64,000 bases of DNA, taken from the NCBI GenBank assembly GCA_965219955.1, contig OZ244799.1, positions 1,952,001 through 2,016,000 on the forward strand. The letters are read 5' to 3'. Shown here piece by piece: positions 2,785 through 44,366 of this stretch; the stretch's first letter is position 1, and each line of letters begins with the position of its first letter. The DNA is from a bacterium. Its GTDB lineage: Bacteria > UBA8248. Under the pieces are notes generated by a model that saw only the letters and a program-made list of their open reading frames with translations, did no database searches and was not told the DNA's origin. Position numbers and translations under genes: made by a program.

Positions 2785-3408
2785 ATGCGAAGCTCCCGGA
2801 GACGCTGGTGGCGGTGGCTGATCCTCCTCGTCTTGCTGTCCCCCCTCCTCGGGGTCGGCAGTCTGTACGGGATACGCGCCGTGGAGTCCTACGATCCGTT
2901 CTGTACGGTCTGCCACTTACAGGATCACCAGGATTATCTCGACGACGGGGCGCGCGCGGAGAACATGGTCAAGACGCTGGGCGGGTGGCACAAGAATGCG
3001 GGCGGCGTGAAGTGCATATCATGCCACGGGGAAGAGGGCATCACGGGGATGATCCGCACGACGATTCTGGCGAACAAGGACCTTTACAAATTCATCATCG
3101 GTGATTATGAGCAGCCCTCGCGCGTTTTCCATCCCATCCTCGATAAGGACTGTGTGAAGTGTCACGACGAGGAGCGTCTCCTGGAGTTGTCCGACGACGC
3201 GTTTCACGCCATCTCGGACCACGCGGAGCTCAAGGCGGACTGCGTGCAGTGCCATAATGGTCACCGCGTCGGGGGCGAGCGAGAAAAAGGGTTCATGGTG
3301 GCGGCCACGGCGCAGCCGCGTTGTGACGCCTGCCACGACGAACTGGAGCAAAAAGTGGATTTGAAGGATATTGAGCCGTTTCCCAGGAAGAGAGAATCTG
3401 ATAGTTAG
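2785..3408 (+). CDS. Membrane-anchored multiheme cytochrome c (NapC/NirT-like, 5 CxxCH)
   Basis: N-terminal TM helix followed by CTVCH, CISCH, CVKCH, CVQCH and CDACH. Confidence 0.85.
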   Translation: MRSSRRRWWRWLILLVLLSPLLGVGSLYGIRAVESYDPFCTVCHLQDHQDYLDDGARAENMVKTLGGWHKNAGGVKCISCHGEEGITGMIRTTILANKDLYKFIIGDYEQPSRVFHPILDKDCVKCHDEERLLELSDDAFHAISDHAELKADCVQCHNGHRVGGEREKGFMVAATAQPRCDACHDELEQKVDLKDIEPFPRKRESDS

Positions 3409-3483: not shown

Positions 3484-4359
3484 TTGCGATTTTTCGTTTT
3501 GATCTTCACCGTCACCTTTCTGTGGGGTCTGAGCTTTCCGGCGGCCAAGATAGGCCTTCGCGGCGTGGAGCCTTTCACGTTCCTCTGGCTCAGGGGCATC
3601 ATCTCCTCGGCGAGCGTTTTCCTGATCATGTTCGCCCGAAAGATGCCGGTCCTGCCGCCGCGACCGTCCTGGAGAGGGGAGAGCCGCGATTTCTGGATCA
3701 ACGCCTGCCTGCACAACCTCATGTTCATCACCTATTATCACGGCGTGGACCACACCACCGCCGGGCGCGCCTCGCTGTTCCTCTACTCCCAGCCCCTGCT
3801 CCTGACGGCGCTCGCGGCGTGGATTCTGCCCCAGGAGAGGGTGGGCGTCCGCGCGGTTTCGGGCTTCATGGCGGCGAGCTTCGGCATGGTGCTCCTCTTC
3901 GGCGACAAGCTCTCATCAGCCGGCGGATCCACCTGGTACGGGGACGCCATCGTCGTCCTGGCGGCCGTGGTATGGGCGGTGCAGTCGATCTTTTTGAAAA
4001 TGCGCTTAAGGAGTTTCGACGCCTTCAGAATCACGGCCTGGACGCAGCTTCTGGCCGTGCTCCCGTTCTTCATCGTCGCCTCGTTTCTGGGCGAGCCCTG
4101 GCCCGACCTGACGGACGCGAACGTGCTCACCGGCGTGGGCTACAGCGGCCTCATCGGCACGGGGCTGGCCATGATCCCCTGGCTGTGGCTGCTGACGGAC
4201 TACCCGGCGAGCCGCGTGGGCGTGTTCATGTTCCTGACGCCCGTGTTCGGGGTCCTGACGGGCGCCTTGCTGCTCGCGGAACCTTTGACGATGCTTATGC
4301 TCGGAGGGGCCGTCCTCATCTCATTGGGCATATATTTTGTGAATTCCGATTCGAAATAA
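3484..4359 (+). CDS. DMT/EamA family transporter
   Basis: 291 aa, about 10 hydrophobic segments, LWGLSFPAAK and FLTPVFGV motifs; TTG start. Confidence 0.9.
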   Translation: MRFFVLIFTVTFLWGLSFPAAKIGLRGVEPFTFLWLRGIISSASVFLIMFARKMPVLPPRPSWRGESRDFWINACLHNLMFITYYHGVDHTTAGRASLFLYSQPLLLTALAAWILPQERVGVRAVSGFMAASFGMVLLFGDKLSSAGGSTWYGDAIVVLAAVVWAVQSIFLKMRLRSFDAFRITAWTQLLAVLPFFIVASFLGEPWPDLTDANVLTGVGYSGLIGTGLAMIPWLWLLTDYPASRVGVFMFLTPVFGVLTGALLLAEPLTMLMLGGAVLISLGIYFVNSDSK

Positions 4360-4523: not shown

Positions 4524-5570
4524 TCATCCTATCCGCCAAGCCGTCACGCCACCCTGCGCGTCGAGCGCGGCAAGCGCGCGCCCGTCCGGACGCCAATACA
4601 GCTTCGCCCCGATGCCCGCCAATACCGCGGTCCCGATCGGACGGCCATTTCCGTCTCTCTCGAGCGACCACACCACTACGGCGCCATCCCGTGCCGCCGA
4701 TGCCAGGCGCATCCCGCGGCGAGCGAAGGCAAGCGTCGTAACGGGTTGAACATGACGCTCCAGAACACCGGGCCGCGTGCCTTCGGGGCCATCTCCCTCG
4801 AAGCTCCAGACCGTCACCGCCTCCCCTCCGCCGGTGGCCAGAAGGGTGCCGGTATCATCGAAAGCCAGGGCCGATGGCTTGGCGGAATATCCTGACATCA
4901 TGGCGTCCTGCTCCGTGGAGCGACGCCAGAAGTGCACGGTGTTGTCCTGGCTGCCGCAGGCCACGATATCCCCGTCCGGGCTCAGCACCATCGACACCAG
5001 GGATCCCTGCCACTCCAGCTTCTGGCGAAGCTCGCCGGTGGGCGCGTCGAAGAACGTCACTCGGCCGTAACAGGCCGTCGCCAGCTCCCCTGCGCCCGAC
5101 CAGGCGATCGCGCTGACCGTGCTGGGTTGATCATCAGATCGCCAAACCTCCGCGCCGTCCACGCCATACGCGCGAACCTGCCGGGAGCAGGAGGCCGCCA
5201 ACCACTGGCCGTCCGGCGACCACGCCACGTTCTCCACCCAACCGCCCCCGATGTCGATAGCCTGTTGTACCTGACCTTCGGCGACACCCCAGATGAGGAC
5301 TCGTCCGTCCTGGCCGGCCGTAGCGAACGCGGTTCCGCTCGGGTGGATCGCCACCGCGAGCACACCGCCTTCATGAACCCCGCGCCGCTCCCAGGTGGTC
5401 GCGCCGGACTTGCCGTCGAATGCGTAAACGCCGCCCGCAGCGTCACCGACCATCAGCGCCTCACCACGCAGGCTCCAGCCACCGGCAATAGCGTAGTCGC
5501 CAACCGCCGCAGACCAGCCCCGGCGAAGAACACCCCTTGGGCCGTCGTCATTTTGAAGTGCCGCCGACAT
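4524..5570 (-). CDS. WD40-repeat beta-propeller protein
   Basis: Repeated units such as HEGGVLAVAIHPSGTAFATAGQDGRVLIW, SPDGDIVACGSQDNTVHFW and HVQPVTTLAF...ASAARDGAVVVW; start taken at ATG 5570. Confidence 0.9.
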   Translation of the reverse strand: MSAALQNDDGPRGVLRRGWSAAVGDYAIAGGWSLRGEALMVGDAAGGVYAFDGKSGATTWERRGVHEGGVLAVAIHPSGTAFATAGQDGRVLIWGVAEGQVQQAIDIGGGWVENVAWSPDGQWLAASCSRQVRAYGVDGAEVWRSDDQPSTVSAIAWSGAGELATACYGRVTFFDAPTGELRQKLEWQGSLVSMVLSPDGDIVACGSQDNTVHFWRRSTEQDAMMSGYSAKPSALAFDDTGTLLATGGGEAVTVWSFEGDGPEGTRPGVLERHVQPVTTLAFARRGMRLASAARDGAVVVWSLERDGNGRPIGTAVLAGIGAKLYWRPDGRALAALDAQGGVTAWRIG

Positions 5571-5571
5571 C

Positions 5572-5799
5572 TCAATCAGCCTCGGCAGCCGCAATCGCTG
5601 CGATGTTGGCCAACAGCCATGCGGATGCAGCAAACAACTGCAACCAATCCCCACCGGACCTGATCCCGTAAGTCAGCATGCTGCCAATCCAGCAAAGGCT
5701 GGCAGCCGTTTGTCCGAGCCATTCGATGCTCCGCACCCTGGCTAGTCGGCTTCGCCTCGCGCCAGACGCGACGGCCCCTTCGTCGTTTCCCGTCAACAT
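5572..5799 (-). CDS. Small two-helix membrane protein of unknown function
   Basis: 75 aa with two hydrophobic segments; start overlaps the upstream stop and the stop lies 1 nt from the WD40 start (tight operon packing). Confidence 0.65.
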   Translation of the reverse strand: MLTGNDEGAVASGARRSRLARVRSIEWLGQTAASLCWIGSMLTYGIRSGGDWLQLFAASAWLLANIAAIAAAEAD

Positions 5800-6923
5800 A
5801 CGCAATCCGCCCCACAATAGGAGAGGTCATCGAGATACATGCCCCAGTTGCGGTACTCTTTCAAGTCTTCCGCCGGCAGCCCCAACGAGGTCGCAATTGC
5901 TTTGGCGACAACGGCGAATCGTTGTCGATACTTGTAGATAAAGCAGAAGACGTGATTGTCATGGCGAACTGCGGGGCCGCAGAGAAATACTCCCGGTACG
6001 ATGGTTGATTCATCGTGTTCGCTCAGAAGCGGAAAGCCATCGTCGCGTCGCTCAAACAAATCCGCGATGAACTTGTGACTCCCCTCAAATCCGCCCGCCC
6101 ATAGTGGCGGCACGCGGGTTTCAAACCGATGCCCGTCTCGAGCCGTAACTTCATACATGGCGTTTACGCGAGTGACCGATTCGATAGGTGTGTGCGGAAA
6201 CAGCTCCACTTGCTCGACAAACCAGTCTTCACGCATCCGTTCGAGCGTAAACGGGGAAAGCGCGACACTGGGATCGGAACTCTCTTCCTCCCACGGACAA
6301 TCCTTGTCGAACAACCGCACTCGTTTGTCGCGACACGCCAGATGGTAGGCCACGTCGACACCACTTTCGTAGCCGCCCACAACGATGAAGTCGTCACCGT
6401 CAAGCTCTCCATAACTGGCGATGGTCGCGGTGTGACGACACAATTGGCTGCCGACAAACCCATTCAAGCGTGGGTATTGGAACTCGCCAGCGGCCCAAAT
6501 GACATGCCTGGCTTGCAAGGTCTCGTCGGCCGTATCAATACGAAAGCCGTCGCCAACCTTTGCTATCTGCATCACGTCGGTATCCTGGCGTACAGGTAAC
6601 TCAAAGAAATGTGCGACTGCACGCAAATATATCGCGTACTCTTCACCCGTCGGATGCTCAACCTCCAAACTGAAAGCGGGTGAAGTTCCAATCGCGATCG
6701 AGTTCAAATCGAGCATGCCAATCGAATTGGTTGGGTACGAGGGCGTGATGAAGCGAGTCTCGGCCGGCCATGAGGCGAACGATGCGCCGACCGTGTGACG
6801 ATCGAGAACTACGAAGTTCTCGATGCCGGCATGCCTGAGAGCCACCGCGGCGCCCACGCCTGCGGCGCCGGCGCCGACGATCGCTACGTCATAGCAGGTT
6901 TTACTGCTCTCGGCGCCGATCAT
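5793..6923 (-). CDS. FAD/NAD(P)-dependent oxidoreductase (CzcO/TrkA-like) with C-terminal Cys motif
   Basis: VAIVGAGAAG FAD motif, VVGGYESG second dinucleotide motif, C-terminus DDLSYCGADCVC. Confidence 0.85.
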   Translation of the reverse strand: MIGAESSKTCYDVAIVGAGAAGVGAAVALRHAGIENFVVLDRHTVGASFASWPAETRFITPSYPTNSIGMLDLNSIAIGTSPAFSLEVEHPTGEEYAIYLRAVAHFFELPVRQDTDVMQIAKVGDGFRIDTADETLQARHVIWAAGEFQYPRLNGFVGSQLCRHTATIASYGELDGDDFIVVGGYESGVDVAYHLACRDKRVRLFDKDCPWEEESSDPSVALSPFTLERMREDWFVEQVELFPHTPIESVTRVNAMYEVTARDGHRFETRVPPLWAGGFEGSHKFIADLFERRDDGFPLLSEHDESTIVPGVFLCGPAVRHDNHVFCFIYKYRQRFAVVAKAIATSLGLPAEDLKEYRNWGMYLDDLSYCGADCVC

Positions 6924-7371
6924 GCAGATACCTCCTGTCGATATTCAAACCAGACATGCCTCGAATCCCTGCCGCATGCTCTGTTCATCGAGGTCGCGGC
7001 CGATGAAGACGAGCTGATTGCGCCGGGGCGAGTCTCCCCATGGAGAATCCGGCTGGCTGTCTATGAGCATGTGAACCCCCTGGAAGACGAAGCGACGCGA
7101 CTCACCCGCGAGGCTGATGGAGCCCTTCATTCGGAAGATGTCCACCCCGCGCTCACGGAGCAGTTCGCCAATCCAGGCGTCGAGCTTTTCGGGATCGACG
7201 TCACCGTCCCTCTCGATCGCGATCGAGCCCACCTCGTCGTCGTGTTCGTGCTGTGCGACCCAGGTGCGCTCGGCCTCTGGCCTGATTGCCGCTCCTTCCG
7301 CGTTCCTCAGTTGGAGATCGAACTCATCCGCGCCGTGCTCGGCGTAGAGGGCAACCCGCACCTGCGTGTCG

Positions 7372-7643
7372 TATATGGACGCCCACGAGAATGCAAGCGG
7401 TTTTTGGGGAGGGTTCGGCGCAAAGCGGTTCGGCTCAGTCGTATATCCGGCCTCTTCGTTGCGGCGCTTTACTCTGGCCGCGGGCCCGTATGGAGATAGG
7501 TGGACCGGGTCCAAATCGACCTGGTGAGCTCGGTGGCTCTGGACATATATCTGGTTTTCCCGGTCCCGTCTCGATGACCGTTTGCCCTTACCCTTCCTCC
7601 GGCCTGCTCACATTCCTCCCGGCTCTATCCGTGCGCCCGCCGC
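7372..7643 (-). ncRNA. Putative bridge/seekRNA region of the IS1111-group element
   Basis: 8-bp stem GGACCGGG/CCCGGTCC (7566-7559 / 7509-7502) encloses AGGTCGA, matching the target. A second stem (GCGGC/GCCGC within GGCC...GGCC) is followed by ATATACGA, matching the donor junction. Exact RNA ends unknown. Confidence 0.7.
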
Positions 7644-8669
7644 TCAGGCGAGGGGCGCCGGCTCCCTGTAGACATCCTTGTTCCGCATCAGCGCCCACGC
7701 GATGCGCGCCATCCGGTTCGCCAGCGCCACCGCCACCACCTTCCTCGGCTTGCGCGCCAGCATCCGCGCCAGCCACGGACACGGCGGCTTCCGGCGACGC
7801 CCCGCCCAGCGTATCTCCGACATCGCGCCCGATATCAACAGACGCCTCACGTCGCGCTGGCCCATCTTCGACATGCCCCCCAGACGGGGCTTGCCCCCCG
7901 TGGAGTGCTGCCGGGGAACCAGACCCAGCCAGGCCGAGAAGTCACGGCCCCGACGGAAGTTCTCCACCGGCGGCGCGAACGCCCGGATCGCCGACGCCGT
8001 AATCGGACCAACACCCGGGATGCTCATCAGACGCCGCGCCTCCTCGTCCGCGTATGCGCTCGCCCGGAGCCGTCCGGTCAACTCCCGGACCTTCGCATCG
8101 AGGCCGCCAATCTGGGCGAGCAGAATCCCGCCCAACTCGCGGACCTCCTCGGGCAGGCCCGATTCCGCTCCCCGAACCGCCGCCGCCAGCCGTGTGAGGC
8201 CCACGGGCCCTTGCCGCTCGACGACCCCGAACTCCGCCAGGTGGCTGCGCAGCGCGTTGCGCGCCTGCGTGCGCTGACCCACCAGCAAATCCCGCGTGCG
8301 GTACTCCATCCCACACCCCTGCTGCGCTTCGCTCTTCACCGCCACGAAGCGCATCGTCGCCCGGGTGGCCGCCTCGCAAATGGCCTCCGCATCCGCCGCG
8401 TCGTTCTTGTGGCGCTTCACGTAGGGCTTCACGTAGACCGGCGGCATGAGCCGAACCTCATGGCCGAGCTTGCCGACCTCGCGCCCCCAGTAGTGCGCGC
8501 TCGCGCACGCCTCCATCGCCACCACGCATCGAGGCTGCGACGACAGAAACTCCAGCACCTTCGCCCGCGTCAGCTTCTTGCGGAACGCGACCCGCCCGTC
8601 CGCCCACGCGCCGTGGAGTTGAAAACTGTGTTTCGCCAAGTCGACCCCGATGATGTAGACTCCTCCCAT
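7644..8669 (-). CDS. IS110-family transposase/recombinase (DEDD RuvC-like + Tnp20)
   Basis: IIGVDLAK, VAMEACA, KNDAADAEAI, SIPGVGP and GLVPRQHSTGGK; AAGGAG RBS before ATG 8669. Confidence 0.96.
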   Translation of the reverse strand: MGGVYIIGVDLAKHSFQLHGAWADGRVAFRKKLTRAKVLEFLSSQPRCVVAMEACASAHYWGREVGKLGHEVRLMPPVYVKPYVKRHKNDAADAEAICEAATRATMRFVAVKSEAQQGCGMEYRTRDLLVGQRTQARNALRSHLAEFGVVERQGPVGLTRLAAAVRGAESGLPEEVRELGGILLAQIGGLDAKVRELTGRLRASAYADEEARRLMSIPGVGPITASAIRAFAPPVENFRRGRDFSAWLGLVPRQHSTGGKPRLGGMSKMGQRDVRRLLISGAMSEIRWAGRRRKPPCPWLARMLARKPRKVVAVALANRMARIAWALMRNKDVYREPAPLA

Positions 8670-9911
8670 GGTCGTCTCCTTCCGGGCGGTGTGTGACGTC
8701 GTCTCGCCACATTCTAATCCGCCGGAAGGAGGCGTCCACCCCATCGACCTCCAGGAAGAACGATTTGCGCCCCGGGGAATCGAGTAAGAGGTTCACATGC
8801 TTTCCGAGGGGAATCTCTTCCCCCGGGCGAATGAGCTCCGCAGGTTCGGCGTACTGCCGCACACACCACTCCGCACCCTCACGGAGGGCAGCGTCATCCG
8901 TCCCCTGGTCGGACACGACGACGAGCGACATCGCCGGATCAGGTCCATCGGCGAGGCCGAGTTCGTAGCGGCCGATATCGAGCGAATAGACTCCGGTCCA
9001 TTCGAACGGATACTCCGGCTCGAGGAAGGTGGGACGACGCTCGAGCACCTGGTCCAGGTCGAAGGCGCCGAGGTTGAGGACCGTGTCGACCGAGACGTTC
9101 GCCCGCTCGCTGCGCACGACGCGCGCCATTCGGTTCATGTCCCGGAGCCGGGCTTCGAGACTGTCGAGCGCCTCGCCGTTGACGAGGTCCGTCTTGTTGA
9201 GCACCAGGACGTCCGCGAACGCGATTTGCTCGGTGCTTTCGTCGCTTCGGCCGAGTTGTTGCTCGATGTGGGCTGCATCGACGAGCGTGACGATCCCGTC
9301 AAGCGCGAACTCCGCGCGAATCTCGTCGTCCATGAAGAAGGTCTGAGCGACCGGGCCGGGATCGGCGAGCCCTGTGGTCTCCACCAACACATAGTCGAAC
9401 TTGTCGCGGCGCTTCATGAGATTGCCGAGCACGCGAATCAGGTCTCCGCGCACCGTGCAACAGATGCAGCCGTTCGCCATCTCGAAGATCTCTTCGTCAG
9501 CGTTGATGACGAGCGCCTGATCGATGCCGACCTCCCCGTACTCGTTCTCGATCACGGCGATGCGCTTGCCGTGCTCTTCACTCAATATCCGGTTGAGCAG
9601 GGTCGTTTTGCCAGAGCCGAGGAAACCGGTGAGGATGGAAACAGGTACTTTTCGCGGCGTGTTCATTTAGTTCTCCTGGAGCAGAGGTATGGGTATTGGA
9701 ATTTGGACGTCGAACGTCCGCGTGATGGCCCAATGGGCTCTCATGCAACGTCGCGCGAAGCTCTGGATAGATTTGAATCCGGCTCGACTCTCTCGCGGCT
9801 CACGCGGAGAGCCGGGCGCCCTGCAGGACGCGCGCATGTGAGATGCGGATGACCGAGAGGCGCCACGAGATGCCGGTGACCCTTTCGCCAAAACGGACGA
9901 GACAGTTGCGG

Positions 9912-11126
9912 TCATGCCGGCTCCTCGTCCATGAGAAGCTCCGGAAACGGGTTCCGGAGCTCTGCCCAGGCCTTGCTGTCAGCGGAGGCGAGGCGCTCGT
10001 CGAGCAGGCACGCGTCGAGGCGGGCGCGTATCTCCGCCTCGTGCATCTGCTGGCCGATGAAGACGAGCTGCTGCGTGCGGTCGCCGAAGCGAGGATGCCA
10101 GTCCGGCTGCTGGTCAGGTCGCTGATCCTCGGGGTGCTCCCAGTGTTCGCGAGGCAAGGCCGCCCACCACATCCCGGCGGGGCTCACGTCGCTGACGCCG
10201 CCGGCCAGAGCCCACTCGTAGGCGATCCGATGGTCAGCGGCGACCCAGAAAAAGCCCTTCGAGCGGAGCACGCCGCTCCAGTTCTCGTCGTCGTGCAGGA
10301 ACGCCCACAGCTTCTCGGCGTCGAAGGGCTGCGGCGTCCGATAGGTGAAGCTCGAGATCCCGTATTCCTCGGTCTCCGGCGTGTGCTCACCCTGAAGCTC
10401 TCGAATCCAGCCAGCGGAGCTCTCCGCCTTCTCGTAGTCGAACAGGCCCGTGTCGAGCACGCATTCGAGCGGGACCTGTCCGCGCGTCGCCATGAGGATC
10501 TTCGCGCCGGGGTTGAGCGCTTTCACGATAGCCTCGACCTCGCGAGCCTGGTCGTTGCTCACGAGATCGATCTTGTTGAGCACGATGACGTCGGCGAACT
10601 CGATCTGGTCGATGAGCAGGTCGGTCACCGTCCGTTGATCTTCTTCGCCCAGCGACTCACCGCGGTCCTGGAGCGCTTCGGCGGCGTTGTAGTCCCTCAG
10701 GAAGCTCTCCGCGTCCACGATCGTGACCATCGTGTCGAGGCGCGAAACCTGACCCAGGCTCACACCGTTCTCGTCCTCGAAGGTGAAGGTCTGCGCGACG
10801 GGAATGGGCTCGGAGATCCCGGTGGACTCGATGAGCAGGTAGTCGAAGCGTCCCTCCTGCGCGAGTCGTGAGACCTCGGCGAGCAGGTCGTCTCGCAGCG
10901 TACAGCAGATGCAGCCGTTCGACATCTCGACCAGTTTCTCCTCGGTCCGCGAGAGTTCCGCACCGCCGCGCTCAACGAGCGCCGCGTCGATGTTGACCTC
11001 GCTCATATCGTTGACGATGACCGCGACGCGCATGCCCTCGCGGTTTTTGAGCACGTTGTTGAGAAGAGTGGTCTTGCCTGCGCCGAGAAAGCCGGACAGG
11101 ACAGTAACGGGAAGTCTCTCTGGCAT
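9912..11126 (-). CDS. COG0523 zinc metallochaperone GTPase (ZigA/YciC-like)
   Basis: [57 protein letters not shown] and LRSKGFFW. Confidence 0.95.
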
Positions 11127-11146
11127 GGGCACTTTGGTTCCCTCAC

Positions 11147-11524
11147 TCAAAGGGTGATGACGAGGTCGGGCGCGGCGGGGGCGAGCGCGGCGTAGAACTG
11201 CGGGAAGCAGCCGGCGCCCACGCCGGCCACCAGGCCCTTCGCCTTGACGTCGCCGGAGCCGCACTGTTCGAACGTGCCCTCGGCGAGGTTGCGCCGCACG
11301 GCGCACTGATCGCAGACCATGAGGAGGATGTTCTGCTCCGCGGCGACCTTGGCCAGGCGCTCGCCCACCTCGTCGCCCTCGCGCAGGCAGAACAGGTTGT
11401 CGTCGAAGAAGAACATGCCGACGACGTTCACCCCGTGGTTGCCCGCTTCGAGTTGCGGGAGGATCATGGTGCCCAGCTTGTAGGTCGCCGACATGTCGGT
11501 GGCGAAAACGTATGCGATGTTCAT
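11147..11524 (-). CDS. DsrE-fold protein (SaoD-like)
   Basis: [34 protein letters not shown] and PDLVITL; GGAGG RBS. Confidence 0.75.
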
Positions 11525-11697
11525 CCTTCAGGTTCCTCCTGGATTGCGTCTTTCAAACGGTGGATGATGACTCTGCTACCCCTGTTTTTCAGCGAATACC
11601 ACGCCCGGCTTTGTGCGGCCGGGGCACACCTGCTGCCGCCCTGCGCCGAATTGCGGGGAACCTCCTTTCCGCAGGGTCCGCCCGTACCTGGCGCCGG

Positions 11698-12834
11698 CTA
11701 AAATTCGGCGGCCAACTGGACGGTGAAGTTGTCGGTGTGCTCGCCGCTTCCGCCTTCATCGGCGCCGTAGTCCGTATCACGCGCCCATTCGACGCCGAGT
11801 GAAAGCCCGTCCATCACCTCGGACGAAAGACCGATCAGCATTCGTTTTTTCGGCAACTCAAGCGCCAGCGCCTCATCCGTCGTCTGGTAGCTCGCGGCCA
11901 GCGTCGCCTCCTTGCCTGCCAGCTCGAACCCGTAGGCCACCTCGACCATCCAGGCAGAGGGTTTCGCGCCGTAGTCGCCGAACGCAACATAGTCCGCGCC
12001 GAACGTATCCATCGCTCCCAGATACTCGCCGAGCACCGAGATGCTTCCAATCGTCAGCATCGCGCTCGCCGAAATGCCCGCAACGCGGTCGTAGCCTTCC
12101 GCACCTTCGACCTCCAGACCGTCCGAATCACCCAGGTCGTTGGTGTAGGAGAGATTTAGCCCGAGCTCGAAGCTGTCCGTCTCGACCGAATAGCCCGCCG
12201 CGAAGCCGAAGCCCTGGATGAGGTTGTCGCCGTCTTCCATGTTGTCGCCCTTGAAGACGAATACCGACCCGCTCAGGGCGCCGGCCGAGCCGTCGAGTTG
12301 GAAGGCGGTCTGTCTCGTCTCGCCGATGTCGAGCGTCAGGGGATCGGAGATCAGGTTCGTCTCGAACACGCCGAAGGGGATGTAGAGTTGACCGCCCGTG
12401 AGGGACCATGCGCCCTCGGGCGGGCCGATCGTCACCGTCGCGGTATCCACGTCCACGGGACCTTCGCCCTGTTCCCAGAGGAGCACGACCTCTCCTTTCA
12501 CCCAGTCGCTCACCTCCACGCCTATGCCGAGTTCAACCGTGCCCACGGCCAAATCCGCTTCGGTATCTCCCTCGGGGGGTTTTGTCACGGTTCCTTCGAT
12601 TTCGATGGCGCCGCCAATCTCCACGGCTTCGAACCACTTGTCTCCACCGGTGAGTTTGGCTATTTGCTTGTCTTTCTCGACAATGACTTTATCCTGCGCG
12701 GAGACGCGCTCTTCCAACTGCCTGATGCGCTTTTCCATGTTGAGGAGGCGTTCCTCGACGGACTGTTGAGCCAGGGCGGGCGCGTTCCAGAAAAGCGCGG
12801 CCGCGGCGGCCAATAACAAAACTCTTGCTTTCAC
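11698..12834 (-). CDS. Outer-membrane porin, LbtU-like
   Basis: Signal peptide, N-terminal coiled coil, TVELGI, GQLYIPFGVFETNLISDPLTLDIGETR, beta-barrel C-terminus TVQLAAEF; AAGGAG RBS before GTG. Confidence 0.8.
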   Translation of the reverse strand: MKARVLLLAAAAALFWNAPALAQQSVEERLLNMEKRIRQLEERVSAQDKVIVEKDKQIAKLTGGDKWFEAVEIGGAIEIEGTVTKPPEGDTEADLAVGTVELGIGVEVSDWVKGEVVLLWEQGEGPVDVDTATVTIGPPEGAWSLTGGQLYIPFGVFETNLISDPLTLDIGETRQTAFQLDGSAGALSGSVFVFKGDNMEDGDNLIQGFGFAAGYSVETDSFELGLNLSYTNDLGDSDGLEVEGAEGYDRVAGISASAMLTIGSISVLGEYLGAMDTFGADYVAFGDYGAKPSAWMVEVAYGFELAGKEATLAASYQTTDEALALELPKKRMLIGLSSEVMDGLSLGVEWARDTDYGADEGGSGEHTDNFTVQLAAEF

Positions 12835-13078
12835 CGATTTCTCCTTTCCCTTTCAGACTTCCCGTTCACGATGCGCCATGAAGCGCTGGAGCGGTTCGCT
12901 TGCTTGACCGACCACACAGGTCTCCGGACAGACTCCTGCCCCTGTCCGGCTACAGAACCTCCGAAACTCCCTCTCCCTTCGGTTCCGTACGCCGCTACGA
13001 AAATTGCGGGCGGCTCCCGGGGATATGCGAGGGGAATAGAGCGTGCTGGTTCATATCCCCGGGAAGCGCCGCCTCAAA

Positions 13079-14275
13079 TTATTTCCGCGAAAGACACGTA
13101 TTGAGAGATTTCGCCATGTTGCGCAGGAGGGTGAAATACGCGTCCTCACCGGCGGGAATATCCGCGCCCAGGGGGTCGAGCACGCCGGTTCCGGCGCCCG
13201 TTCCCTCCATGACGACCCTCACCAGTTTCGGCTGGAACTGCGGCTCGCTGAACACGCAGATCGATTTCGTATCCTTGATCTTCTTGCGAATCTCGACGAG
13301 GCGCGCCGCGCCCGGCTTTTTCTCGGGCGAGAGGGTCACCGAACCGATGGCGTTCAGCCCGTAGCGTTTCTCAAAGTATTGATACGCATCGTGAAAAACG
13401 ATGTAGGGCGCGCCTTTCAGAGGCGCGAGCGTGCCTTTCAATTCCTCATGCAGGGCGTCTAACCGGGTCATCAGCCTCTTTTCGTTCGCCTCGTATTTTG
13501 CCTTGTTCGCAGGGTCCGCCTCTTCGAGCTCATGCGTGATTTCATGCACCCACTTCTTGGCGTACATGGGGTCGAGCCAGGCGTGCTCGTCGAGACCGCC
13601 GTGATGATGCCCGTGATGACCCCCGGCCTTCTCGTCGTGATGATCATCCTTGGCTTTCTCGTGTTTATGATCATCGTGGTGATCGTCTTTTCCCTTGGCG
13701 TGTTTGTGATCATCGTCGTGATGGTCGTCTTTTTTGGCCTTGGCGTGTTTATGATCGTCGTGGTGGTCGGCGTCTTTGCCTTTTTCGTGCTTATGATCGT
13801 CGTGATGGTCGTCTTTTTTGGCCATGCCGTGCTTATGCTCATCGTGGTGGTCGCCTTTTTCGTCCTCACCGTGATGATCGTCGTGCCCTTCCCACAAGCC
13901 GCCTTCCCTGAGCTTCAACAGTTTCAGACCCTTTATCTCCGTCATGGCGACGACTTCCGCCCGTTTCGGCAGAACTTCGAGGGGCCGCTTGAGGCTCGGG
14001 GCGAGCAGCTCACCCACCCAGAAAATCACGCGCGCCCGCTCAATCTCTCTGGCGTCGGAGGGTTTGAGCGAAAACGTATGCGGCGAAGCGGCGCCTTTTA
14101 TCAGCAGATAAGGTTCGCCGATCCCCTTCATGACGCCCGAGACCAGCGCATGAAGCGGCTTGATGGAGGCCACCACCTTGGGCGCGGCCGATGCGGGGGC
14201 GGCCAGGCGCGCAATAAGCGTCATTGCCAGGGCCGCAGTGAACAACATATATTTCATGGATTCGCTCCTATTCAT
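13079..14275 (-). CDS. znuA: Zinc ABC transporter substrate-binding protein with very long His-rich loop
   Basis: VVASIKPL, SPHTFSLKPSD, DEHAWLDP, VFHDAYQYFE, FSEPQF and LDPLG. Confidence 0.95.
   Translation of the reverse strand: MNRSESMKYMLFTAALAMTLIARLAAPASAAPKVVASIKPLHALVSGVMKGIGEPYLLIKGAASPHTFSLKPSDAREIERARVIFWVGELLAPSLKRPLEVLPKRAEVVAMTEIKGLKLLKLREGGLWEGHDDHHGEDEKGDHHDEHKHGMAKKDDHHDDHKHEKGKDADHHDDHKHAKAKKDDHHDDDHKHAKGKDDHHDDHKHEKAKDDHHDEKAGGHHGHHHGGLDEHAWLDPMYAKKWVHEITHELEEADPANKAKYEANEKRLMTRLDALHEELKGTLAPLKGAPYIVFHDAYQYFEKRYGLNAIGSVTLSPEKKPGAARLVEIRKKIKDTKSICVFSEPQFQPKLVRVVMEGTGAGTGVLDPLGADIPAGEDAYFTLLRNMAKSLNTCLSRK
13601..13885 (-). repeat. Imperfect tandem repeats encoding DHHDDHKHxKxK(K) units inside znuA
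   Basis: About six units of 39-45 nt; about 30 His counted in about 97 aa. Confidence 0.9.
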
Positions 14276-14322
14276 GAATTCTTTCCTTTCGGTGTGAAAT
14301 GGGATTGAAATAGTTTTCTATT

Positions 14323-14337
14323 TGTTATATTATAACA
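14323..14337. promoter_or_regulatory. Zur box
   Basis: Perfect palindrome TGTTATA-T-TATAACA between divergent znuA and zur; matches the core of the proteobacterial Zur consensus. Confidence 0.92.
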
Positions 14338-14366
14338 TTACTATTTTGCTCGTCAAGGAATTATGG

Positions 14367-14855
14367 ATGACATCGATGAAAAAGAATTTTCCCGGCAGGG
14401 ATCACGACCAAGGGGCCTGCGTCGAGAACGCCCTGGAACAGGCCGAAGCGCTTTGCAGGGAGCGCGGCGCGAGGCTCACGCCGCTCAGGAGGCGGGTGCT
14501 GGAGATCATCTGGGAGAGCCACGCGCCCCTGGGCGCCTATGACGTACTCCAGCGCATGAACGCGGAAGGGGGGCGAAACGCCCCGCCCACGGTCTACCGG
14601 GCGCTGGATTTCCTCTTGAAGCACGGCCTCATCCACCGCATCGAGAGTCAAAAGGCGTTCGTGGGCTGCGCCACACCGGAAAACGCCCACAAGGCGCAGT
14701 TCTTCATTTGCCGCGATTGCGGAAACGTGGCCGAGACGCACAGCGAGGAAATCGGCGAGGCCATCGAGGCAAGCGCCACCCGGGCCGGTTTTCTGGTGGA
14801 GACGCCCGTCATGGAAATCAGCGGCAGGTGCAAGGAGTGTCATGACGATGAATGA
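14367..14855 (+). CDS. zur: Zinc uptake regulator (Fur family)
   Basis: RLTPLRRRVL, PPTVYRALDFL, HRIES, CRDC and CKEC; adjacent to znuABC. Confidence 0.93.
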   Translation: MTSMKKNFPGRDHDQGACVENALEQAEALCRERGARLTPLRRRVLEIIWESHAPLGAYDVLQRMNAEGGRNAPPTVYRALDFLLKHGLIHRIESQKAFVGCATPENAHKAQFFICRDCGNVAETHSEEIGEAIEASATRAGFLVETPVMEISGRCKECHDDE

Positions 14856-15633
14856 CGCGCGGCGCTCTCTCGTCACCGCCGCGAACCTCCATCTCCGAAT
14901 CGGCGGAACGACGATACTCCACAATGTGGGCCTCGACATTTCGGCGGGTGAAATACTGACCCTCATCGGCCCGAACGGCGCGGGCAAGACCACGCTCGTC
15001 CGCGTGGTGCTCGGCCTGCTCAAGCCCGATTCGGGAGAAGTCCGCCGGAAAGAGGGACTCTCGGTCGGCTACCTGCCCCAGTCCTTCGAGGTGGACCACT
15101 CGCTACCGCTGACCGTACGCAGATTGCTGCGCCTCACGCAGAAGGCATCTACCGAGGAGATGGAGGAGGGCCTCGAGGAAGTCGGCGCCGGAGACCTGCT
15201 GGATCATCCCGTCCAGAGCCTCTCCGGCGGGGAGCGCCAGCGCGTGCTGCTGGCCCGCGCCCTGCTGCGCAACCCCGAACTGCTCGTTCTCGACGAACCC
15301 ATCCAGAACGTGGACGTCAACGGGCAGAGCGAACTCTACCGCCTGATCGCGAAGATCAGGGCAGACAGGGGCTGCGGCGTCATCCTGATCTCGCACGACC
15401 TCCACCTCGTCATGGCGTTCACCGACCGCGTGGTGTGCCTCAACAGGCACATCTGCTGCACGGGGCATCCCGAAGCCGTGAGCAAAAACCCCGAATACCT
15501 CGCCCTGTTCGGCAAGCATGCGGCCGAGAGCCTCGCCGTCTACACCCACAAGCACGACCACGTTCACGGCTCGGAAGGAGAAATACTTCCCAACGAAGTC
15601 GAAGAAACCCACCATCATCACGGAGGCGCGTGA
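14842..15633 (+). CDS. znuC: Zinc ABC transporter ATP-binding protein
   Basis: GPNGAGKT, LSGGERQR, LDEP, SHDLHLVM and a His-rich tail. Confidence 0.95.
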   Translation: MTMNDARRSLVTAANLHLRIGGTTILHNVGLDISAGEILTLIGPNGAGKTTLVRVVLGLLKPDSGEVRRKEGLSVGYLPQSFEVDHSLPLTVRRLLRLTQKASTEEMEEGLEEVGAGDLLDHPVQSLSGGERQRVLLARALLRNPELLVLDEPIQNVDVNGQSELYRLIAKIRADRGCGVILISHDLHLVMAFTDRVVCLNRHICCTGHPEAVSKNPEYLALFGKHAAESLAVYTHKHDHVHGSEGEILPNEVEETHHHHGGA

Positions 15634-16427
15634 TGGAGGATTTCATGCTCAGGGGGCTCATGGGCGGGGTGGGCGTCGCCCTGGTGACGGGCCCGGTGGG
15701 TTGTTTCATCGTCTGGCGCAAGATGGCCTACTTTGGAAACTCCATGGCCCACACGGCGCTCCTCGGCGTGGCGATAGGCTTCGCCTTCGGGATCGACCTG
15801 CGGCTCGGCATCCTCATCTCCTGCATGAGCCTCACGATCATCCTGGTCTTTCTACAGAGCCGGAAAACACTCTCCACCGACACGCTGCTCGGCATCCTGG
15901 CCCACATGGCGCTTGCGGTGGGCTTCATCGCCGTCAGCGTGCTGGATACGCTCCGGGTGGACCTGATGGGCTATCTCTTCGGGGATATCCTGGCGGTCGG
16001 GGCGCTTGATTTGTGGTGGATATATCTCGGCGGGGCGGCGGCGCTGGGCGTGCTCGCGTGGCTGTGGCGGGGGCTTCTCGCCGTCACGGTGAACGAGGAA
16101 CTGGCGAGCGCCGAGGGGGTCCCGACCTTCCGCGTGAAACTCGTCTTCATGCTCCTGATCGCCTTCATCATCGCCGTCGCCATGAAGCTGATCGGGATTC
16201 TGCTCATCATCTCGATGCTCATCATACCGCCGGCGGCGGCGCGGCGTTTCTCCAAAACGCCCGAGCAGATGGCGGCGCTCGCCGTTCTGGCGGGGGTCGT
16301 CTCCGTCGCGGTCGGCCTCTGGGCCTCTTTGGAGTGGGACGCGCCCGCCGGGCCCTGTGTCGTCGTGGCGGCGTCGGCGCTGTTCCTCCTCAGCTACACA
16401 TGGGAAATGCTGACTGGCAGGGGATAG
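15633..16427 (+). CDS. znuB: Zinc ABC transporter permease
   Basis: GCFIVWRKMAYFG, DLMGYLFGDIL and ELASAEG; TGATG coupling with znuC. Confidence 0.95.
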   Translation: MEDFMLRGLMGGVGVALVTGPVGCFIVWRKMAYFGNSMAHTALLGVAIGFAFGIDLRLGILISCMSLTIILVFLQSRKTLSTDTLLGILAHMALAVGFIAVSVLDTLRVDLMGYLFGDILAVGALDLWWIYLGGAAALGVLAWLWRGLLAVTVNEELASAEGVPTFRVKLVFMLLIAFIIAVAMKLIGILLIISMLIIPPAAARRFSKTPEQMAALAVLAGVVSVAVGLWASLEWDAPAGPCVVVAASALFLLSYTWEMLTGRG

Positions 16428-22801: not shown

Positions 22802-23070
22802 TAACCCGACAGCGGGTTCCGGGTTCGGGGTTGGAAAGCCCGACCCTTGAGGGTTTTGCCATCCAAGGAGGAGGAGAAATCGACTCCCCCCTTGAGGGGG
22901 AGTCGAAGAAGCCTTTGTCATAGGAGCAACCCCCCCTACCCCCCCTTGTCAGGGGGGTAAAAAAAGGCGACACCAACCGCCGGTTGAGGGGCTTTTGTTT
23001 TTTCTTGCCCCCCTGTTAAGGGGGGGTAGGGGGGGTTGCCTTTATCCCCTGACAAGGGGGACTTTTTCAT
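22802..23070. repeat. Cluster of short palindromic repeats (ACTCCCCCCTTGAGGGGGAGT; CCCCCTTGTCAGGGGG; CCCCCCTGTTAAGGGGGG)
   Basis: The same hairpin families recur at ~25330, ~31101, ~50092, ~51260 and ~62250. Confidence 0.8.
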
Positions 23071-41676: not shown

Positions 41677-42672
41677 GTGGGCGCCTACATCATCCGTACG
41701 AGCCTGTTCAAGCTGGCGACGCTTTTCATCATCTCGGTCGTGAGCTTCCTGATCATCCATCTCGCGCCCGGCGAACCGAGCCAGATCGACCCCCTGAACC
41801 CGCGCTTCACGCAGGAAGACCTCGCGCGCTACCGCGCCGCCTTCGACCTCGACAAGCCGCTTCCGGTGCAATACTGGCGCTTCTACAAGAAATTCTTCAC
41901 CGGCGAACTCACGAGCTTGAAGGACAACCAGCCGGTTTTCGGAAAGATATGGCGGCGCTTCCTCATCAGCCTGCCCCTGTTCATCGTGGGCACCATCATC
42001 ACCTGGTGCCTCTCGTTCCCGCTGGGAATCGCGGGCGCGCTGCGGCGCTACAGCGTTTTCGACCGCTCCACCACCTTCATGAGCTACCTCATGATCTCGA
42101 TGCCGAGCTTCTTCCTGGCCTACATCCTCATCATCGCCGTCGTCCAGGGGTTCACGCTGCCCTTCACCGACTTCCGCGTGCCGGGCCTAGAAGTCTCCGT
42201 CCTGGGAATCGAGACCTTCGGACGCGGCGAGGTTTCTCCCCTGTTCCGGATCAACGACCGCGTATGGCACCTGGTGCTGCCCAGCCTCGTGGGCGCAGTC
42301 GGGGGCATCGCCGTGCTCTCGCGCTACGTGCGCGGCCAGATGATAGAGGTGGTGGATTCGGACTTCATCCGCACGGCCCACTCCAAGGGCCTGGATGAGG
42401 ACACCGTGAACTACGTGCACGTCCTGAGGAACGCGGCCCTTCCCTTCGTCACCATGTTCGGCCTCATCCTGCCGGGGCTGATCGGCGGCTCGGTCATCAT
42501 CGAGAACATCTTCGCGTGGCCCGGCATGGGCCGGCTGGGCTTCGAGGCCGTGCTGGCGCGGGACTACCCGGTGATCCTGAGTCTCAACTTCATCTCCGCC
42601 ATCCTGGTCGTCATCGGCACATTCATCTCGGACGTCCTGCTCGTCGTCGTCGACCCGAGGATCCGCCTATGA
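41677..42672 (+). CDS. Peptide ABC transporter permease (OppB/DppB)
   Basis: LDKPLPVQY, DFIRTAHSKGL, HVLRNA, IFAWPGMG, RDYP and DPRI. Confidence 0.95.
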   Translation: MGAYIIRTSLFKLATLFIISVVSFLIIHLAPGEPSQIDPLNPRFTQEDLARYRAAFDLDKPLPVQYWRFYKKFFTGELTSLKDNQPVFGKIWRRFLISLPLFIVGTIITWCLSFPLGIAGALRRYSVFDRSTTFMSYLMISMPSFFLAYILIIAVVQGFTLPFTDFRVPGLEVSVLGIETFGRGEVSPLFRINDRVWHLVLPSLVGAVGGIAVLSRYVRGQMIEVVDSDFIRTAHSKGLDEDTVNYVHVLRNAALPFVTMFGLILPGLIGGSVIIENIFAWPGMGRLGFEAVLARDYPVILSLNFISAILVVIGTFISDVLLVVVDPRIRL

Positions 42673-44279: not shown

Positions 44280-44366
44280 GCCCAAGTGGTGGAATTGGTA
44301 GACACGCTAGCTTGAGGGGCTAGTGGGGGCAACCCCGTGTCGGTTCGAGTCCGGCCTTGGGCACCA
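44280..44366 (+). tRNA. tRNA-Leu(GAG)
   Basis: Acceptor stem GCCCAAG/CTTGGGC, anticodon arm CTAGC-TTGAGGG-GCTAG, long variable arm, GTTCGAGTC T-loop, encoded CCA. Confidence 0.97.

Follow-up and report, generated by a model that had tools for sequence, protein, structure and literature searches.

We describe here a putative zinc-starvation locus within a stretch of 64,000 nucleotides (nt) of bacterial DNA (contig OZ244799.1, lineage UBA8248; hereafter the window), and in particular two adjacent genes of this locus, which encode an NAD(P)H/FAD flavoprotein with a Cys-rich C-terminal tail and a small membrane protein with two transmembrane helices (2-TM protein). We consider it fairly probable that the locus was assembled from two evolutionary units and that its durable functional core is the flavoprotein/2-TM pair. 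Unit 1 comprises znuA and the genes of an LbtU-family porin, a SaoD/DsrE CxxC protein and a ZigA-type COG0523 GTPase (COG0523 no. 1), while unit 2 comprises the genes of a YjiA-like COG0523 GTPase (COG0523 no. 2), the flavoprotein, the 2-TM protein and a WD40 protein. Judged from the sequences compared, the flavoprotein/2-TM pair linked to COG0523 appears to be a real, widespread and functionally unassigned module.

The flavoprotein and its coupled membrane partner

Relatives of the pair were collected with a flavoprotein alignment from genomes in which each species is represented once; at least 542 relatives were confirmed (with at least 599 pattern matches) and the best 80 loci were kept. 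All 80 are anchored on the flavoprotein, and the other proteins of the window were compared with them by tblastn. The loci come from Planctomycetota (37), Chloroflexota (21), Binatia (9), Nitrospirota (8), Myxococcota (3), Latescibacterota (1) and Thermodesulfobacteriota (1). The nearest one, L001, is 97% identical, which makes a Binatia bacterium the probable source of the window. The 2-TM gene lies directly downstream of the flavoprotein gene in 78 of the 80 loci, and its product is 58-98% identical to that of the window. In the window, its ATG start codon overlaps the last Cys codon and the stop codon of the flavoprotein gene by 7 nt (gtATGtTGA), its A being the last base of a Val codon while its T and G open the final Cys codon. 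The same 7-nt start/stop overlap is present in 76 loci (67 with ATG, 6 with GTG and 3 with TTG as the start codon), two loci show no overlap and two have no match, and the pair is translationally coupled. An alternative frame for the small open reading frame (ORF; 5576..5830) was considered and rejected, since the 2-TM frame scores higher when distant loci are compared (85 versus 32 bits in L023, for instance).

An alignment of 34 sequences of the 2-TM protein (A2) exhibits a variable basic N-terminus followed by two helices, with invariant residues W27, Q30, W37, D51, Q54, W61 and N65; from the basic N-terminus and the two helices, both termini are predicted to be inside. The protein belongs to no Pfam or NCBIfam family, and in the Atlas it falls only into clusters labelled 'hypothetical', one of them with YrhK in 13% of its members. 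A profile search of 1.84 billion representatives yielded 237 proteins with E <= 1e-3, including 129 with E <= 1e-10, most of which are 50-110 residues long. A few proteins of 147-249 residues hold two or three copies of the unit in tandem, several of them with poly-Q linkers (P0245, P0249, P0252, P0283, P0262, P0352). Because such two- and three-copy forms exist, the sequences suggest that the 2-TM unit works as an oligomer; that the poly-Q forms are of eukaryotic origin is our guess. A search for fusions (Rosetta-stone proteins), i.e. longer proteins with the 2-TM unit, gave two matches among 8000 proteins scored, and a 344-residue protein that would combine Pyr_redox_3 with the 2-TM unit was rejected as a true fusion, since it reads as a frameshifted gene call. 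In the literature search, no description of the coupled 2-TM partner and no assignment of a function came up.

The flavoprotein ends with ...LDDLSYCGADCVC, i.e. with the C-terminal pattern CGxxCxC. In an alignment of 18 sequences (A1), the residues C162, C315, C327, C370, C374 and C376 are invariant, and an ATG-like motif and two Rossmann motifs are visible. The closest solved structure, PDB 3d1c_A (E 1.6e-73, aligned over residues 11-376 including the tail), shares with it both the fold and a C-terminal CCxxxCxC tail (CCEVSCTC). It is titled 'Flavin-containing putative monooxygenase', with no assigned function, and the literature search found only methods papers that cite it. We take 3d1c to come from Staphylococcus aureus and to be presumably NWMN_2483, going by locus-tag numbering, which could not be checked by sequence. 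YpdA/Bdr, CzcO and ArsO are members of the same Pfam family and have the same two-Rossmann architecture; the YpdA/Bdr chains in the PDB are weak matches (E between 5e-9 and 8e-8), and the flavoprotein stays below the cut-offs of both the YpdA model (TIGR04018, 81.8 bits versus 339.9) and the ArsO model (57.4 bits versus 425). Neither the Cys tail nor the membrane partner is shared by these proteins; both are peculiar to the flavoprotein family found in the window. An AlphaFold2 model built from A1 had a mean predicted local distance difference test score of 52.4; residues 277-376, to which the tail belongs, scored below 50, and the model was not used.

The best 120 database matches of the flavoprotein are 75-97% identical to it and 345-385 residues long. 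Across phyla its amino-acid identity is 68-82%, whereas the third codon positions are 35-71% identical, and therefore the protein has been under deep purifying selection and its spread is not only a matter of recent transfer. In Binatia-like loci the third positions are 86-95% identical, which apparently reflects recent divergence or exchange, and for the flavoprotein and COG0523 alike the comparison suggests a mix of deep conservation with some recent exchange. The flavoprotein and the intact 448-residue COG0523 protein are 75-94% identical between different phyla, and many source isolates bear names that look like those of marine or sponge-associated metagenome-assembled genomes (MAGs).

Genomic neighborhoods of the pair

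A COG0523 gene of any kind was found in 41 of the 80 loci. Among the 69 loci with 1.5 kb or more of upstream sequence, 34 have such a gene directly upstream of the flavoprotein gene and in the same orientation. Zur-like and ZnuA/B-like proteins are each encoded in 7 loci. WD40 was matched in 12 loci and DsrE in two, in both cases as fragments of 44-51 residues, and none of the 80 loci gave a tblastn match to the porin. The YjiA-like COG0523 and WD40 genes accompany each other in 11 of the 12 loci with WD40; the contig of the twelfth (L080) breaks off within the flavoprotein gene. The YjiA-like gene immediately followed by a WD40 gene was found also far from the flavoprotein (L012, L014 and L021).

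The surroundings of the pair are related to zinc in several lineages. In Nitrospira (L010, L014) two ZigA-like genes and the pair are followed by ALAD and PRA-CH, while DHOase and DUF3386 are found close by (Pfam); according to PMC2770081, the ALAD, PRA-CH and DHOase types occur in Zur regulons as zinc-independent paralogues. In Planctomycetota (L042, L047, L058) the order is a Fur-family gene (seen in L047), ZigA, the pair, two genes without assignment and another ZigA, with a carbonic anhydrase gene further on in L042. Myxococcota locus L053 exhibits Fur, ZigA, the pair and another cobW-domain gene, Dehalococcoidia locus L024 an ABC transporter, ZnuA and the pair, and Binatia locus L019 a Zur-like gene on the opposite strand, followed by ZigA, the flavoprotein and the 2-TM protein. 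The ZigA-like proteins encoded beside the pair in Planctomycetota, Nitrospirota and Myxococcota are 52-89% identical to ZigA of the window.

Some additional genes next to the pair have been also identified. In Planctomycetota, two co-oriented ORFs of 200-260 residues are located between the pair and the second ZigA-like gene (L042, 11268-12706; L047, 11348-12635; L058, 11414-12701), while in Nitrospira a single 232-residue ORF follows the pair (L010, 11336-12034). Where scanned, these ORFs matched no Pfam or NCBIfam family; they could encode lineage-specific partners. In L019 (3641-4906) the pair is followed by a second, different flavoprotein of 421 residues (NAD_binding_9/Pyr_redox_3).

Two units and the junction between them

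Upstream of COG0523 no. 2 the window keeps only the last 55 nt or so (about 18 codons) of a 102-residue gene. The full protein of about 100 residues, which belongs to no family (…TELACLEEGCPPIETVV…LLQEN), is encoded directly before the YjiA-like COG0523 in L001 (8322-8630) and L002 (8115-8555). In the Binatia relatives L002 and L005 the gene order is HupE/UreJ, DUF1636, the gene of about 100 residues, COG0523, flavoprotein, 2-TM protein and WD40 (Pfam), and the unit 2 operon of the Binatia relatives is preceded by a TTGACA promoter with the palindrome TGTAATA-N7-TATTACA and by a second palindrome, ATTATGCAATAAT. The first palindrome is exact in 5 of the 80 loci, with near copies in L004, where it is located directly upstream of the flavoprotein gene, and in L008. 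In the window there is no copy of it except for one match with three mismatches at 41867, of a kind seen in 6 of 100 shuffled sequences. Because unit 2 has lost its own promoter/operator and the remnant of the 102-residue gene has been left behind, it must have been joined behind zigA by a rearrangement, and the remnant marks the recombination junction between zigA and COG0523 no. 2. As this promoter/operator region is gone, unit 2 would thus be transcribed only from upstream.

Unit 2 follows other metal-related genes elsewhere: in L001 it comes after an ABC transporter, and in L003 after an ArsP permease and ZigA, with a junction between zigA and COG0523 that is similar to that in the window. 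The unit 2 DNA of L003, which comes from a MAG labelled as Latescibacterota, is about 92% identical to that of the window, and this likeness suggests transfer or mis-binning. At 5296-8039 of L003, an inserted block with a split Lgt gene and an antisense COG0523 gene is flanked on both sides by copies of the flavoprotein gene end and of the 2-TM gene.

The second COG0523 gene of the window carries an IS110-family insertion sequence (IS). Its apparent ORF of 402 codons (8458..9666) comprises 308 genuine residues and read-on into the element, whose boundaries (7372..8742) were derived by a blastn comparison with the uninterrupted genes of L001, L002, L003 and L005; apart from the insertion the gene is collinear with them. 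The element is oriented like the operon and encodes a transposase of 341 residues (NCBIfam, 301.8 bits versus a cut-off of 140; PF01548 and PF02371), with non-coding ends of 73 nt (5') and 272 nt (3'), and it is flanked by a repeat that agrees in 3 of 4 nt (CGAT/CGAC). No second copy was found in the window. A promoter-like site TGGACG-16-TAGAAT (8738..8711) was noticed at the left edge of the element. The intact protein, as found in relatives, has 448 residues and comprises a YjiA-like GTPase domain (residues 7-214) and a C-terminal domain (351-444; PDB 1nij, E 1.5e-63), separated by an insert of about 136 residues, which gave no match in the PDB and within which the IS110 element is located. 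It is 85-94% identical to its best 120 database matches, whose source names refer to Nitrospinota, Chloroflexota, Gemmatimonadota and Gammaproteobacteria, and in L001 it scores 205 bits with the ZigA model, below the cut-off of 600. From the reading frames, the insertion, which came after the joining of the two units, appears to have inactivated COG0523 no. 2, and it may also weaken the expression of the three genes that follow.

The Zur box and the reach of transcription

In the intergenic region between znuA and the divergent zur-znuCB genes lies the palindrome TGTTATATTATAACA (14323-14337), the perfect Zur box announced by the first-pass annotation, and the scan for further Zur boxes that had been recommended there revealed no other site in the window at up to three mismatches; at least one such match was obtained in 8 of 100 shuffled sequences. 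The 20-nt Zur motif of Escherichia coli, as quoted in a review (PMC6103462), is matched at 19 of its 20 positions, at one site and on both strands, while two matches were obtained in 3 of 100 shuffles. By their match to the consensus, promoter-like sites overlap the box on both strands: TTGACG-16-TATAAT on the minus strand (14356..14329, 11 of 12 positions) and TTGAAA-17-TATTAT on the plus strand (14305..14333). The sequence supports the view that the divergent znuA and zur-znuCB promoters are under a genuine Zur-type box and that the locus serves in zinc starvation, as had been also claimed at first.

Between positions 4000 and 16500 there are only two AT-rich stretches, one around the Zur box and one at the terminus past the WD40 gene, and therefore unit 2 would be transcribed from upstream; such expression is plausible, because the unit lacks the promoter and operator kept in relatives. 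This agrees with the extended operon of the first-pass annotation without being proof of it. A hairpin begins just past the znuA stop codon. It is present in both the minimum free energy and the centroid fold, the z-score of the whole gap being -0.55, which is not significant, and it is a possible attenuator or terminator of a non-canonical type. The terminator scan did not call it, and the sites that were called numbered 8, versus 8.6 in shuffled sequences. Folding of the three long gaps gave z-scores of -0.55, +0.49 and -1.25, none of them significant.

Layout of the locus

The coordinates of the features are collected in Table 1. All eight genes named in the first-pass annotation were recovered from the ORF listing and the Pfam and NCBIfam scans, and they all share the orientation of the minus strand, on which the cluster runs from 14337 to 4524; however, COG0523 no. 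2 is split and the transposase gene is a ninth ORF of the same orientation. The upstream intergenic gaps are long (244, 173 and 245 nt), with zigA starting 20 nt past the SaoD/DsrE gene. The tight packing described for the last four genes holds when the IS is left aside: they are separated by a 21-nt gap, the 7-nt overlap and a 1-nt gap, the last of which lies between the 2-TM stop codon and the ATG of the WD40 gene.

Table 1. Position and identification of the features of the zinc-starvation locus (window coordinates, unless a locus of a relative is named)
Feature	Position	Strand	Identification
WD40 beta-propeller, cytoplasmic, 348 aa	4524..5570	-	Pfam WD40 E 1.8e-28, 4 stretches; PDB 2ymu E 1.5e-90
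Two-helix membrane protein (2-TM), 75 aa	5572..5799	-	conserved frame; no named family
NAD(P)H/FAD flavoprotein, 376 aa	5793..6923	-	Pyr_redox_3, Pfam 318.8 bits vs gathering score 30, positions 2-305 of 305
COG0523 no. 2, C-terminal part (end of insert domain and CobW_C)	6945..7371	-	Pfam CobW_C E 2e-26
IS110-family element, ~1.37 kb	7372..8742	-	transposase 7644..8669; NCBIfam NF033542; Pfam DEDD_Tnp_IS110 and Transposase_20
COG0523 no. 2, N-terminal part, 308 codons	8743..9666	-	Pfam cobW E 2e-61; blastn vs intact relatives
Remnant (last ~55 nt) of 102-aa gene	9667..9725	-	translations and DNA alignment A3
COG0523 no. 1, ZigA-type zinc metallochaperone GTPase, 404 aa	9912..11126	-	NF038288 equivalog 627.7 vs cut-off 600; Pfam cobW and CobW_C
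SaoD/DsrE-family protein, 125 aa	11147..11524	-	NCBIfam NF040913 198.7 bits vs cut-off 152; CDQC motif
LbtU-family outer-membrane porin	11698..12834	-	NCBIfam NF033652 273.6 bits vs cut-off 90, profile positions 2-327 of 327
Hairpin, 6+13 bp stem, 24-nt loop	13073..13009	-	just past znuA stop; UUUU at about 13002..12999
znuA	13079..14275	-	Pfam ZnuA E 9e-62; NCBIfam ZnuA equivalog 269.7 bits vs cut-off 268
Zur box	14323..14342		7-1-7 palindrome TGTTATA-T-TATAACA (14323-14337) inside 20-nt Zur motif
zur	about 14367..14855	+	Pfam FUR
znuC	14842..15633	+	Pfam ABC_tran
znuB	about 15630..16427	+	Pfam ABC-3
Unit 2 promoter/palindrome region in relatives	L002 6776-6814; L005 6860-6907; L004 9178-9222; equivalents in L006-L009

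The start codons of zur, znuC and znuB are our own reading of the sequence. The putative Zur regulator matches Pfam FUR (E 2.7e-14), and the Zur model of NCBIfam is its best match, at 125.4 bits and thus below the cut-off of 167. The porin exhibits a signal peptide, a coiled coil and a barrel in its sequence. The SaoD/DsrE-family protein belongs to the non-SAO branch and scores 113.7 with the model of SaoD proper (cut-off 169); its match to Pfam DsrE is weak. The CobW model (TIGR02475, cut-off 332.1 bits) is reached neither by COG0523 no. 1 (164.7 bits) nor by intact COG0523 no. 2 (209.4 bits). An AztD-like periplasmic propeller was considered for the WD40 protein and rejected, as the best 60 of its 412 PDB matches are ordinary WD40 proteins and no signal peptide was seen by eye. 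The His/Asp-rich loop of ZnuA (noted at 13471-13876) is about 100 residues long and made of 42-nt (14-residue) tandem repeats (13667-13876), with four copies of an 84-nt register; a loop of this length is unusual for ZnuA.

Downstream of the cluster an EamA gene (3484..4359) converges on the WD40 gene, and just past it lies a gene of a NapC/NirT-type multihaem cytochrome c (2785-3408). Elsewhere in the window we noticed direct repeats of 165-167 nt that are 89-98% identical (16600-16764/17656-17820 and 50091-50257/51259-51425), an inverted pair of 104 nt, 3.4 kb apart (25091-25194/28613-28716), and a poly-C/poly-G hairpin (22926-23039). A search of the whole window with Rfam revealed only a tRNA at 44280, and no riboswitch or bridge-RNA family.

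Comparison with known systems

With its divergent znuA and zur-znuCB genes and one Zur box on the shared promoter region, the window resembles the ZnuABC-Zur locus, from which it differs in being extended by the porin, SaoD/DsrE, the two COG0523 genes and the other genes of unit 2, and in the long repeat-built loop of ZnuA. Combinations of COG0523 with an oxidoreductase are known from two other bacteria. In S. aureus, a COG0523 GTPase and a flavoprotein oxidoreductase of unknown function are encoded in one zinc-starvation operon (PMC5480029 and PMC13586535), with a Zur box upstream of HG001_02621-02624 (PMC13586535); the gene order differs from that in the window, and neither a WD40 protein nor a coupled membrane partner of 75 residues is reported in the text available to us. 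In Corynebacterium glutamicum, Zur binds and represses the genes cg0794 (COG0523) and cg0795 (oxidoreductase), of which cg0795 is up 45,500-fold in a zur mutant, and the authors proposed that the two products act together as a zinc insertase (PMC2823685); these genes are divergent, whereas those of the window are co-oriented.

WD40 genes cluster with subfamily 5 of COG0523 and also with znuABC, some of them behind Zur sites (Haas et al. 2009, PMC2770081). The likeness of the window to this subfamily is one of neighborhood, and that paper does not mention the insert of 136 residues or flavoprotein and 2-TM genes located between COG0523 and WD40. With respect to unit 1, a preprint states that non-SAO relatives of SaoD adjoin AztC, AztD and metal ABC transporter genes (10.1101/2022.07.06.499078). 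The literature search gave nothing relevant that links LbtU with zinc, and a query combining COG0523, FAD-dependent oxidoreductase and zinc returned only unrelated papers; the accessible text of a review in Chemical Reviews (PMC11672702) does not mention a pyridine-nucleotide oxidoreductase or WD40.

Possible function of the pair and alternative explanations

Tentatively, as a possibility that falls well short of being probable, we propose that the pair is an ancient and previously undescribed membrane-associated redox component of zinc allocation, a physical partner or a dedicated client of COG0523, conserved in the seven groups sampled, probably in Firmicutes (if 3d1c comes from the organism we take it to) and possibly in eukaryotic microbes. 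A detailed mechanism can be envisaged, which we regard as doubtful, in which the pair is a membrane-bound, NAD(P)H-driven thiol or metal-thiolate oxidoreductase that serves COG0523, with WD40 as a platform. In the simplest case, unit 2 would be transcribed by read-through from the Zur-controlled znuA promoter. The flavoprotein would dock on the 2-TM protein at the cytoplasmic face of the membrane, where FAD and NAD(P)H would keep the C-terminal Cys cluster reduced, and this cluster would take up Zn2+ or pass it to the COG0523 GTPases at the inner membrane face, while the WD40 protein would act as the docking platform of the YjiA-like chaperone.

Several observations weigh against this proposal. 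As many as 33 of the 80 loci have no COG0523, Zur or ZnuA/B match, 13 of these 33 holding less than 10 kb of sequence, and among 34 ORFs flanking the pair in 16 loci, mostly from Dehalococcoidia (15 loci without any COG0523 match and L017), none is metal-related. The E. coli-type Zur box is exact in none of the 80 loci, and with up to three mismatches there are 5 sites versus 12-19 in five mononucleotide shuffles; therefore zinc control in the relatives rests on the neighboring genes and not on a recognized operator. In the Binatia relatives the operator is built as 7-7-7, unlike the 7-1-7 Zur box of the window, and the HupE/UreJ and DUF1636 genes found there are classically tied to nickel, cobalt and cobalamin. 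In the window itself, a 19-bp hairpin with UUUU directly follows znuA, and the three gaps of 173-245 nt could hide promoters or terminators. As regards the enzymatic activity, the flavoprotein is only distantly related to YpdA, the one thiol-disulfide reductase it resembles. Membership of NWMN_2483 and Cg0795 in the flavoprotein family could not be confirmed by sequence, and the available text of PMC2823685 gives no family for Cg0795.

The first-pass annotation had seen in all eight genes a single Zur-controlled pathway, leading from the porin to ZnuA and then to a redox/sulfur step of DsrE and the flavoprotein, with two chaperones and a WD40 scaffold. The genes are on one strand behind a single Zur box, with no AT-rich promoter-like region between 14300 and 4420, the distal ones are tightly packed, and the genomic company of non-SAO SaoD relatives mentioned above (10.1101/2022.07.06.499078) would also fit. 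On the other hand, the whole set does not co-occur in any of the 80 loci, all of them anchored on the flavoprotein (porin in none, DsrE as two fragments, WD40 in 12), a recombination junction is visible after zigA, relatives put unit 2 behind other genes and COG0523 no. 2 is broken, which makes the eight-gene pathway very unlikely. The refuting condition named in the first-pass annotation, lack of co-occurrence elsewhere, thus speaks against the whole set but not against the core. What recurs is the core pair, so that from the idea of an uncharacterized cytoplasmic module we retain COG0523, the flavoprotein and the small membrane protein, linked to zinc genes in several phyla, but not WD40 as a constant member. 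It is about equally improbable that unit 2 handles cobalt or nickel and has come to stand behind zinc genes here by accident: HupE/UreJ and DUF1636 precede unit 2 in the Binatia relatives, with an operator unlike the Zur box of the window, but the pair is found with ZigA-like, Fur-family and zinc-paralogue genes in Planctomycetota, Nitrospirota and Myxococcota, and intact COG0523 no. 2 scores 209 bits with the CobW model, versus a cut-off of 332.

Other explanations concern the role of the flavoprotein itself. It might be a client, with a metal site (Zn or Fe-S) in the Cys cluster that is loaded by COG0523 at zinc scarcity, like the clients of the nitrile-hydratase activator or ZNG1. The genes of COG0523 proteins are often neighbors of those of their clients, and such a gene is directly upstream in 34 of 69 loci; C370, C374 and C376 are invariant together with three more Cys residues, and the tail is kept in the distant 3d1c. 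However, induction of a protein that needs zinc would be strange at a time of zinc starvation, and COG0523 is missing from the neighborhood in about half of the loci, hence we hold a client role to be unlikely. Unlikely to a similar degree is that the pair is a redox enzyme, for example a membrane NAD(P)H oxidoreductase or a monooxygenase, that replaces a zinc enzyme or has nothing to do with zinc trafficking and is merely co-regulated in some lineages. It does occur among zinc-independent paralogues of the ALAD, PRA-CH and DHOase types in the Nitrospira loci and stands alone in Dehalococcoidia, and the depositors of 3d1c chose the name 'putative monooxygenase'; the ATG-like and two Rossmann motifs in A1 also speak for it. 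Such an enzyme would explain neither why the Cys tail is invariant nor why a membrane partner is coupled to it, and we know of no zinc enzyme of matching activity. Still less likely, the 2-TM protein might oligomerize into a small cation channel or transporter gated or energized by the flavoprotein, as proposed for CzcO/CzcD or for the NAD-binding TrkA/TrkH. The tandem two- and three-copy forms and the invariant polar residues in the helices (Q30, D51, Q54 and N65) would be consistent with it, a 'CzcO family' cluster among the Atlas neighbors is a lead only, coming from a search that gives no alignment or E-value, and one source names a homolog 'flavoprotein involved in K+ transport'. A 'putative iron transporter' is reported as part of the S. 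aureus operon (PMC13586535). Transport by the 2-TM protein is conjectural all the same, and so is the parallel to CzcO and TrkA.

Implications

Zur-controlled pairs of COG0523 with an oxidoreductase and the clustering of COG0523 with WD40 were known before; the lead provided by this analysis is the widely conserved flavoprotein/2-TM pair, while the window itself is the more modest result, namely a mosaic zinc locus damaged by an IS. Zinc chaperones of the COG0523 family are present in all kingdoms, and their clients and partners are mostly unknown. According to the reports cited above, similarly annotated genes are among those with the strongest induction when S. aureus and C. glutamicum are starved of zinc, with no function assigned. 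A flavoprotein that recurs beside COG0523 is therefore a concrete candidate for a missing step in the distribution of scarce zinc.

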